DNA of 64,000 nucleotides, taken from Eledone cirrhosa (Eukaryota). Each line of letters begins with the position of its first letter. Positions within the stretch are counted from its first letter, which is position 1. The position numbers were made by a program, and so were the translations under genes. Of this stretch, positions 13,546 through 17,171 are shown in pieces. The stretch spans positions 7,564,001 through 7,628,000 of the forward strand of contig OZ024742.1 in the NCBI GenBank assembly GCA_964016885.1. The letters run 5' to 3'. The notes beneath the pieces are model-generated. The model was not told the origin of the DNA. It did not search any database and worked only from the letters and a program-made list of their open reading frames with translations.

Positions 13546-14764
13546 GGGAATTTGTATTGGTGTAAAATGTTGGTGATGTTGAACATGTTAAGGAAATGAG
13601 GAAGAAAGAATAATATTATTCATAAACAAGGTTTTTGAAGTGAAAAGAAAAAAAAGGGTGGGGGGGGTGGATCATGATAAGTTAATGGGAAAGAAAAAAT
13701 AATATTATTTATAAGCATAGTTCTTGAGGATAAGCAGTTCAAAATGTGTTATTATGGCAGGAGCGCTTAGTTGATCCATGATGGAGGCAAATGGTATATA
13801 TACATGACTCGGAGTGTATGTCAGTCAGATTTACAAAATCAGTGTGTGTGCTTTTCTATTATATTTTGGCTTATATATTTTTCTTCTATATATAACAGTA
13901 TCCATTATTTCTATCGAGGTTTCTCCTTTACCCGTGTAAATGACTTGACTAAATGACGCCTCCTAGTAAAGTACTTGGTCTCTTAGAAAATATTTTCAAG
14001 TAAGTTTGAAGGATTCCAGGTGCCACATATAGATTTTAGTTTCATACGTTTGGTTTCTATTTAGGATTTTACATCTAAATCACACACCTTTAGACAAATG
14101 ACAAATATAATGAAATATATATATATATATATATATACGCCATATATATATATATATATATATATATATATATATAAATATATATACGCCATATATATAT
14201 ATATATATATATATATATATAATATATATATATATATACACCCATATGTATATATATATATATATATATATATATATATATGTAAGTATGTATGTATACG
14301 TACATACATATATGTATACAGACGTACAGTAGCATGCATATATATATATATATATATATACATATATATACATACACATACACATATGCATACAGGTACA
14401 CAATAAACGTCGGCTAAACTGATGCGTGCATATATGTATGTGTACCTGTATGCATATGTGTATGTGTATGTATATATATGTATATATATATATATATATA
14501 TATATATATATATATATATATATATATGCATGCTACTGTACGTCTGTATACATATATGTATGTACGTATACATACATACTTACATTTAAGTAAGTGCCAT
14601 ACTAAGAGTGAGAAATGAAATTTCGTTTTCATTTTTTTCAAATTATCGTTCTCGGTATGCCTGACCGATTTAACTCACTCAATATGCAAATTAGGCTGCT
14701 CAGCCGTTAATTTTCATAAGGAAAGTATATACTTTCGAACGTTCAACTATCTGGCAGATGGGTA

Positions 14765-14809
14765 AACGGTGCTGATGATAGCTAACAAGCTTGAAACTAG
14801 TACATCGTT
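14765..14809 (+). ncRNA. Type I hammerhead ribozyme
   Basis: AACGGTG-CTGATGA-tAGCT aaca AGCTt-GAAA-CTAG-TA-CATCGTT. Confidence 0.85.
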
Positions 14810-15357
14810 CCTGTGTCAGTGTTGAACAAAAAGGTGACGTGGTTGCCTTAACACTGTATGGCATAAATTCAGGCTGTTCGATTTGTTGACAAACAAACGA
14901 ACAAAGCACGCGATATAATAAACGTCGGCTAAACTGATGCGTGCATATATGTATGTGTACCTGTATGCATATGTGTATGTGTATGTATATATATGTATAT
15001 ATATATATATATATATATATATATATATATATATATATATATATATATATATATATATATATATATATATATATATATATATATATATATATATATATAT
15101 ATATATATATATATATATATGCATGCTACTGTACGTCTGTATACATATATGTATGTACGTATACATACATACTTACATTTAAGTAAGTGCCATACTAAGA
15201 GTGAGAAATGAAATTTCGTTTTCATTTTTTTCAACTTATCGTTCTCGGTATGCCTGACCGATTTAACTCACTCAATATGCAAATTAGGCTGCTCAGCCGT
15301 TAATTTTCATAAGGAAAGTATATACTTTCGAACGTTCAACTATCTGGCAGATGGGTA

Positions 15358-15402
15358 AACGGTGCTGATGATAGCTAACAAGCTTGAAACTAGTACATCG
15401 TT
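15358..15402 (+). ncRNA. Type I hammerhead ribozyme (second copy, +593 nt)
   Basis: Identical to 14765-14809. Confidence 0.85.
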
Positions 15403-17171
15403 CCTGTGTCAGTGTTGAACAAAAAGGTGACGTGGTTGCCTTAACACTGTATGGCATAAATTCAGGCTGTTCGATTTGTTGACAAACAAACGAACAAAGC
15501 ACGCGTTATAATAAACGTCGGCTAAACTGATGCGTGCATATATGTATGTGTACCTGTATGCATATGTGTATGTGTATGTATATATATGTATATATATATA
15601 TATATATATATATATATATATATATATATATATATATATATATATATATATATATATGCATGCTACTGTACGTCTGTATACATATATGTATGTACGTATA
15701 CATACATACTTACATTTAAGTAAGTGCCATACTAAGAGTGAGAAATGAAATTTCGTTTTCATTTTTTTCAACTTATATATATATATATATATATATATAT
15801 ATATATATATATATACACCTATATATATATATATATATATATATATATATATATATATATACACCCATATATATATATATAGATATATATATATTTTTTA
15901 AGTTGCGACAGTCAACAGGAGACAAAAAAAAAACGTGGAAGCGAAGAGGCAGTACAAATGTTATTATATATGTATAACAAATGACTGAGCAGGTTCCTAA
16001 GGCTATCATTTAGCACACGATATCTTTGACAGGATATTTTTTACTATTCCTACTTAATATCCCTGATATATAGCCATATCTGTTACTAAGAAATTCTGAT
16101 TTGCGACAAATTGTTGAGTGTGATTAAGGAGGAAACAATTCTCTAAAAAGAACAACAGACAAAAATAAATCTTCTTCCGCCTCCAGAAATGGAACAGAAT
16201 ATTCCGCATGTCGTAGGTAATACATGGTAAGGAATGAAGAAGATTTACTAATATATACATATATGTGTTACTGTATATAATGGATAAATATGTTTCTTTG
16301 TGTGGTGTATCTCTGTGTTTCTGTGTTTCTATGTTGTCTATGTGTCTCTGTGTCTCTGTGTCTCTGCATTTGTGTGAGTGTGTTTGTGTGTGTGTGTGTT
16401 TGTTTGTTTTTTTATCTCTAGGCTTTAGTGCATTTGTGTGTGTGTTGTATCTCTGTGTCTCTCTGTCACACCATTTGTGTTTGTGTGTTGTGTCACTATG
16501 TCTCTGGGTTTGTGTGTCTCTGTGCCTCTTGGTTTGTGTGTGTGTGTGTGTATGTGTGTGTGTGTGTGTGTGTGTGTGTGTGAATGTGTTTCTGTGTGTG
16601 TGACAGCATCGCCATTTATATTGGCGCTGTTTCTTCTCAATTATATCTAACCCTAGGATTTTGATTTCCAGGTAAGAGTTTGATGAAGAACGAAACTATG
16701 AAAGTAAGACCTGCAATTTGTTGAGTTTGATCTTTATGTTATTGTTATAGAGAAAAGACAGAAAGGTGCTACAATTTACCATTGTCAGGTAATCTCTGTT
16801 TCCTGGATATTAACTGCGACAATCATTCTTCCATAAGCTCTGTTATTCTCTGTGATGAGGCCCCATAAATATCAAAGATGAAACACACAATAAGCGGAAC
16901 GCTATAGAGACTCTTTTGTGTCACAATCAATTGGTTTAATATCAAAGATAAACCCAGCTATAGATTAGATATTGAACAATATTATAACTATACCTAAATG
17001 TTTTCACCTGATTGATTTAGATATTGTTATAAACAACACTGATATAAATATAAATAATTAATGCCAGGAAATTGTTATTATTTATTGTGTGATAAGAGAT
17101 AGGGTGATACAAATGTTCATGTATTTATGGGCAGTATTGCTGCCGCAGGATTTTCAGATATTGGCGGATTA

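Follow-up and report, generated by a model that had tools for sequence, protein, structure and literature searches.

What kind of element carries a (TA)n tract inside each of its tandem, hammerhead-bearing units and itself lies within a (TA)n microsatellite, and what does that tract do? The question is raised by a locus (locus 1) in the window, as we call the whole 64-kb stretch of Eledone cirrhosa DNA analysed here. The sequence-only reading had taken it for a tandem retrozyme and had proposed that its internal AU repeat might either pair with genomic (TA)n targets or seed new microsatellites. The retrozyme itself is supported by our analysis, which allows a narrower assignment, to a non-autonomous Penelope-like element (PLE). 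We consider it likely that the TA tract is a subfamily-specific, length-neutral passenger of this non-autonomous PLE/non-LTR retrozyme.

Table 1. Positions of the two insertions, their parts and the other elements of the window (M, monomer; RT, reverse transcriptase)
Feature	Position	Strand	Description
Left host flank of locus 1	14116..14281	.	Compound (TA)n with CGCCA/CACCCA interruptions; target microsatellite
Locus 1, inverted 5′ arm	14280..14402	-	~122 nt; terminus is site B; edge ambiguous 14280-14282
Locus 1, monomer 1 (M1)	14403..14917	+	515 nt: 468-nt core plus 47-nt TA
Locus 1, monomer 2 (M2)	14918..15510	+	593 nt: 468-nt core plus 125-nt TA
Locus 1, partial monomer 3 (M3)	15511..15776	+	266 nt; terminus is site A; edge ambiguous 15773-15776
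Locus 1, tail	15716..15776	+	~61 nt from site B to site A; direct arm only
Right host flank of locus 1	15774..15894	.	Compound (TA)n
TA tract of inverted arm	14339-14360	-	Pure, 22 nt
TA tract of M1	14481..14527	+	Pure, 47 nt; tip of a quasi-palindromic TA-rich hairpin
TA tract of M2	14996..15120	+	Pure, 125 nt
TA tract of M3	15589-15657	+	Pure, 69 nt
Type I hammerhead 1	14758..14814	+	Core 14772; predicted cut after 14802
Type I hammerhead 2	15351..15407	+	Core 15365; identical to hammerhead 1; predicted cut after 15395
Locus 2, inverted arm	38545..38958	-	Nearly one monomer; terminus is site B; longest TA run 12 nt
Locus 2, direct arm	38957..39286	+	Terminus is site A; tail 59 nt; longest TA run 9 nt
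PLE	1653-7978		829-aa RT plus GIY-YIG ORF 2750-5239 on the minus strand, plus an upstream ORF
Second PLE-type element	8126-12551		RT ORF 10008-11390; tandem and inverted repeats; tail ~45 nt
Another hammerhead family	22250-22568, 45217-45740, 49143-49243		Cores 22445-, 45415-, 45640+
Third hammerhead type	44746 (+), 40164 (-)		Long stem II
Dispersed repeat	23590-24097, 25917-26144, 28133-28234, 38314-38548		~230 nt; ATT-type ends
Two decayed LINE copies	54878-57849, 61031-63997		73% identical

The direct arm of locus 1 (14403-15776) holds about 2.4 head-to-tail monomers with cores of 468 nt each, close to the ~2.5 monomers first read. The rest of that layout was also recovered: the hammerheads are 593 nt apart (cores at 14772 and 15365), each monomer has a pure internal (TA)n of its own length (47, 125 and 69 nt), and an inverted piece of ~122 nt (14280/82-14402) stands at the 5′ end. 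Outside the tract, M1 and M2 differ at two sites, M3 equals M2 and the inverted arm equals the direct copies; 2 of the 1,234 non-TA sites are variable between copies (0.16% divergence). On sequence grounds, locus 1 is a young insertion. Its GC content is 33% in M1 and 29% in M2. All three sense frames contain stop codons within the core, which is thus non-coding, and the ORFs of at least 120 aa across the region are read-throughs of the TA repeat. The CGCCA/CACCCA interruptions of the flanking microsatellite are absent from the element, and CACCCA/CACC recur in the right flank.

The locus-1 hammerhead has a stem I of 7 bp followed by a bulge and 5 bp more, a 4-bp stem II and a stem III formed by the palindrome ACUAGU. 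A palindromic stem III is described for the hammerhead form that works in dimers, and G10.1-C11.1 as highly conserved in hammerheads (PMC4209133). The core bases are all present at locus 1, and positions 10.1/11.1 are U.U in every hammerhead copy of the family. The active fold is placed at -10.6 kcal/mol, against a predicted minimum of -12.7 kcal/mol. Since Rfam returned no match at gathering score across the whole window, the hammerhead call is based on structure; on 14500-15800, HH9 alone appeared (18.5 bits, E 0.19, below threshold), and matches to microRNA families at the E-value level were discarded as low-complexity TA artefacts. A strict hammerhead descriptor, set after the motifs had been seen, finds two sites in the window (14772 and 15365) and none in 300 simulated 64-kb windows. 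Across the three distinct hammerhead copies, 51 of 54 pair cells are standard and two changes are two-sided; this covariation is not significant, because 60 of 500 shuffles reach the observed level. As a contamination check, the exact degenerate pattern was searched in bacterial and archaeal genome contigs, where it had no match. From its modelled structure, activity of the locus-1 hammerhead is plausible.

A search with nhmmer for copies of the family within the window matched two loci only. The second, diverged insertion (locus 2, 38545-39286) is likewise head-to-head, and is 77% identical to locus 1 by BLAST (84% over ungapped non-repeat sites). One core base is missing from the hammerhead of its inverted arm, and stem III is broken in that of its direct arm (core at 38982). 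No TA run in it exceeds 12 nt, and its TA-rich segment is still predicted to form a hairpin (-33.4 kcal/mol). It is inserted where a dispersed repeat ends, in ATT-rich sequence, and its right flank is ATT-rich as well. A connection between locus 2 and the decayed RT-like ORF (36394-38130) was set aside, as an unrelated dispersed repeat intervenes.

The two insertions have both termini in common: sites A and B bound them at both loci (2/2) and leave tails of 61 and 59 nt. Site B lies within the loop of a small predicted hairpin, 3′ of an AC-rich run, and site A immediately 3′ of a second predicted hairpin. Each arm of locus 2 has sequence that is absent from the other, so that neither is a simple fold-back of its partner, a pattern that favours two separately primed cDNAs. 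The locus-2 inverted arm spans a monomer junction, which implies that multimeric or circular templates existed, and all three long arms of the two loci cross hammerhead cut sites, which means that the template was an uncut multimer or a circular RNA. One of the two M1/M2 substitutions (A/T; near 14912 and near 15505) aligns with an A/T difference between the locus-2 arms (near 39112 and the matching inverted-arm site); this recurrent position may reflect chance or a hypermutable site.

Partial tandems, an inverted 5′-truncated arm and a tail on one side make up the layout described for PLEs (PMC8557442, PMC3846280). The inverted arm is present at both loci (2/2) and the tandem at locus 1. As the inverted-plus-tail layout is a PLE signature, we assign the element to the non-autonomous PLE/non-LTR retrozymes. 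It resembles EN+ PLEs in its partial tandem, its inverted 5′-truncated arm and its tail at one end (PMC8557442, PMC3846280, PMC11167929), and also in having two fixed start sites, AT/(TA)n targets, a sense-strand hammerhead and no discernible target duplication. The target is AT-rich at both loci, being (TA)n at locus 1 and ATT-rich at locus 2. The (TA)n preference of PLEs has been attributed to the endonuclease linker (PMC8557442), and a purified PLE protein is reported to nick and extend both target strands, preferring 5′-ATT-3′, and to start at two internal RNA positions that delimit the tail and lack homology to the target; in vitro it does so without requiring hammerhead cleavage (PMC11167929). 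Unlike EN+ PLEs, the element has no ORF, and its tail of ~60 nt (59-61 nt) exceeds the 30-40 bp reported for them; tail length is not decisive for PLE membership, because it varies among the families of the window (up to 39, ~45 and ~99 nt in others). Neither an autonomous partner nor an ORF remnant was found within the 64-kb window, the best tblastn match among 120 PLE proteins being one 14-residue stretch (E 0.009) that is not convincing; nor does the window hold any homology of the element to the pseudo-LTR of an autonomous PLE.

So far, retrozymes and PLEs have been linked through common hammerheads, co-occurrence and phylogeny (PMC7229834; bioRxiv 10.64898/2026.07.22.740005), and it has been argued from phylogeny that animal retrozymes are non-autonomous PLEs (bioRxiv 10.64898/2026.07.22.740005). 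Our element, known here from its DNA alone, is like the metazoan non-LTR retrozymes (PMC7229834) a non-coding tandem with one type I hammerhead per full unit, a short palindromic stem III, a GC content below 50% and PLEs alongside. Its monomers fall within the 51-972 bp range of the preprint (Li, Clavereau and Pollet 2026, bioRxiv 10.64898/2026.07.22.740005) and, at 515-593 nt, exceed the 150-450 bp of the retrozymes of Cervera and de la Pena 2020 (PMC7229834). It departs from the metazoan non-LTR retrozymes in its internal variable (TA)n hairpin, in the U.U at 10.1/11.1 and in its explicit inverted-plus-tail ends, the word "inverted" occurring 0 times in the main text of PMC7229834. No LTR-like layout was seen in the element, and a plant-type LTR retrozyme (type III hammerhead in LTRs, 4-bp target duplication) was rejected, given the type I hammerheads and the tandem layout found instead. 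Literature searches yielded no earlier account of cephalopod hammerheads or of a retrozyme that contains a microsatellite; repeat databases (Repbase/Dfam), subscription papers and bioRxiv supplements lay outside their scope, and the family may be catalogued there. The repeat annotation of Octopus vulgaris includes Penelope families, and its main text uses "ribozyme" 0 times (PMC13282606).

The window is rich in PLE-type elements. The one at 1653-7978 has a CX4CxxC linker that suggests the Neptune clade; a solo inverted copy of it at 18500-18928 has a tail of up to 39 nt and sits in (TA)9/(TA)34, and our scans found no hammerhead in this element. The PLE label of the element at 8126-12551 is based on its layout and RT match. 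The hammerhead family at 22250-22568 and 45217-45740 has an AUAUAU stem III, a head-to-head arrangement and an unusually long tail of ~99 nt, and a diverged relative lies near 49160. The third hammerhead type is found ~0.9 kb downstream of a PLE-like ORF (42065-43813), to which the decayed ORF at 36394-38130 is related. The dispersed repeat of ~230 nt, perhaps SINE-like, forms inverted pairs at 23687-24095, and it is at the end of a copy of this repeat that locus 2 is inserted; ARAGORN found no tRNA genes in the window. At 19408-19680 and 44904-45132, further solo inverted elements in head-to-head arrangement lie beside (TA)n and probably derive from the pseudo-LTRs of other PLE families. For the LINE copy at 61031-63997, the nearest named protein relatives come from Argonauta hians (62%), a hint of an octopod host that is no more than a lead, because transposons can pass from one species to another. 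Microsatellites dominated the repeat search of the whole window.

The tract of M2 is the longest among the 75 TA runs of at least 10 nt in the window, which make up 3% of its length. When the 593-nt monomer is folded as a circle, the (UA)n is predicted to be 96% paired, chiefly within the tract, and the same 144 pairs form outside it at tract lengths of 23, 47, 69 and 125 nt; a tract of 11 nt alters the predicted fold (105 of 153 pairs common). The z-score of -14 obtained for the 515-nt stretch is mostly due to the TA repeat itself. Scars of A-to-I editing were considered for this hairpin family and rejected, with 15 A/G versus 12 C/T differences between the loci and 1 versus 2 within locus 2, which is no signal.

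These observations can be assembled into a mechanism that rests on two insertions, of which the long-tract one is the one in (TA)n, and that we hold to be probable. Transcription would start from tandem copies, and pairs of hammerheads may cleave the resulting RNA into monomers, which would become circles. A PLE RT/GIY-YIG endonuclease supplied in trans would then nick TA/AT-rich DNA, as the two common termini suggest, and cDNA would start at the fixed internal RNA sites A and B, ~60 nt apart. Joined head-to-head, two such cDNAs would give the inverted arm, the direct arm and the tail; judging from the arms, the template was an uncut multimer or a circle. The (UA)n is predicted to form the self-paired tip of a hairpin, and its length would thus leave the rest of the RNA undisturbed. 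In the locus-1 subfamily a short TA-rich segment would have expanded into a pure tract, the length of which would now vary mainly through DNA replication slippage.

Whether slippage suffices can be estimated. The variance in tract length is 482 squared units at 0.16% divergence, for which slippage of 2e-4 to 2e-2 squared repeat units per generation would be needed at substitution rates assumed to be 2e-9 to 1e-8. Values of this size are within the range for long dinucleotide tracts. The RT/GIY-YIG element at 1653-7978 offers a comparison: between its near-identical copies an internal TA run measures 21 versus 33 nt, and the (TG)n runs of its two pseudo-LTRs are variable. Because it has internal TA, this element can serve as a control for elasticity but not for targeting in the absence of a tract. 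The sixfold spread at locus 1 exceeds that of the control, a point against our reading. In shrimp, the simple repeats carried by Penelope elements become longer once the element has transposed (Yuan et al. 2021, PMC7878876). As in those penaeid elements, the internal repeats here would travel with the element and then lengthen; long (AT)n is enriched in recent shrimp copies (PMC7878876). The shrimp elements are coding, whereas here each unit of a hammerhead tandem contains the repeat, which would lie within a putative circular RNA. Tract elasticity itself is probably ordinary.

The lengths could instead have been set at a single integration, the RT stuttering or skipping at each pass over the (UA)n hairpin of a multimeric or circular template and so leaving several new alleles. 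Four tracts of 11-62 units in one insertion with 2 substitutions in 1,234 other sites would fit this course of events, as would arms that cross the hammerhead cut sites and a tract that tops a long predicted stem. We nevertheless regard it as unlikely, since slippage after insertion suffices at ordinary assumed rates, the lengths, taken in order of synthesis (69, 125, 47 nt), show no trend and the shrimp repeats elongate after transposition (PMC7878876).

Long TA runs are difficult to sequence, and the tract lengths at locus 1, read from one assembled window, may include long-read or assembly error. Locus 1 might have arisen from a solo pseudo-LTR through local duplication of DNA or through satellite turnover, or in part through assembly error, with a dead hammerhead and tract lengths that are in part read error. 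Such an origin would agree with the near-identity of the monomers and with the non-canonical 10.1/11.1 of the hammerhead; only 1 of 9 predicted frog retrozyme dimers was cleaved in vitro, and the frog preprint itself suggests local amplification (bioRxiv 10.64898/2026.07.22.740005). It accounts for the number of monomers at locus 1 and not for the termini, both of which recur in a dispersed second insertion, and we judge it quite improbable. Of the two outcomes that the sequence-only reading took as counting against it, one was found: the only other insertion in the window is without a long tract, but the array is not a one-off local duplication. Seeding of microsatellites is plausible for the locus-1 subfamily, because one insertion brings four tracts, but it had already been reported for shrimp Penelope.

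The proposal that the tract guides insertion was not supported. None of the four termini of the two insertions falls within it (0/4); those of locus 1 lie 58 and 119 nt away and have 2-3 nt of microhomology to the target. In three other PLE-type families, 7 of 8 termini adjoin pure TA runs that measure 13-76 nt, the eighth adjoining (GA)16 beside (TA)25, these eight having been hand-picked from a self-comparison of the window, with each edge independently defined. Termini 44838 and 49243, whose edges have no second copy, were left out of this count; both adjoin TA. Both ends of the element at 8126-12551 lie in TA, although it has no internal TA run longer than 7 nt. Target choice would come from the PLE endonuclease and not from RNA-DNA pairing through the tract. 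That the internal AU repeat steers insertion by pairing with nicked genomic (TA)n would match the (TA)n at 2/2 ends of long-tract locus 1 and at 0/2 of locus 2 (n = 2 insertions), yet we find it very hard to credit, given the distance and short microhomology of the junctions, the self-paired state of the tract, the 12-20 kcal/mol predicted for opening 20 nt of it, a locus 2 that has no long tract, the families that terminate in (TA)n without a tract, and a PLE that primes in vitro without target homology (PMC11167929).

The useful part of the finding is the ends: two ORF-less hammerhead-tandem insertions have a two-start-site tail, which is the product of the PLE enzyme in vitro (PMC11167929). 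By their position, these termini tie the retrozyme structurally to the PLE machinery. As a small natural substrate, the family lends itself to tests of mobilisation in trans, and its four tracts in one young insertion offer a natural experiment on whether microsatellite length alters during reverse transcription or later. It seems doubtful that the PLE RT alters the self-paired (UA)n arm of a circular retrozyme RNA on each lap and thereby writes several (TA)n alleles per insertion. If such lap-by-lap change were true, the element would make landing sites for its own mobiliser, the (TA)n-preferring PLE endonuclease, and this feedback loop could in part account for the load of microsatellites and PLEs in cephalopod genomes.
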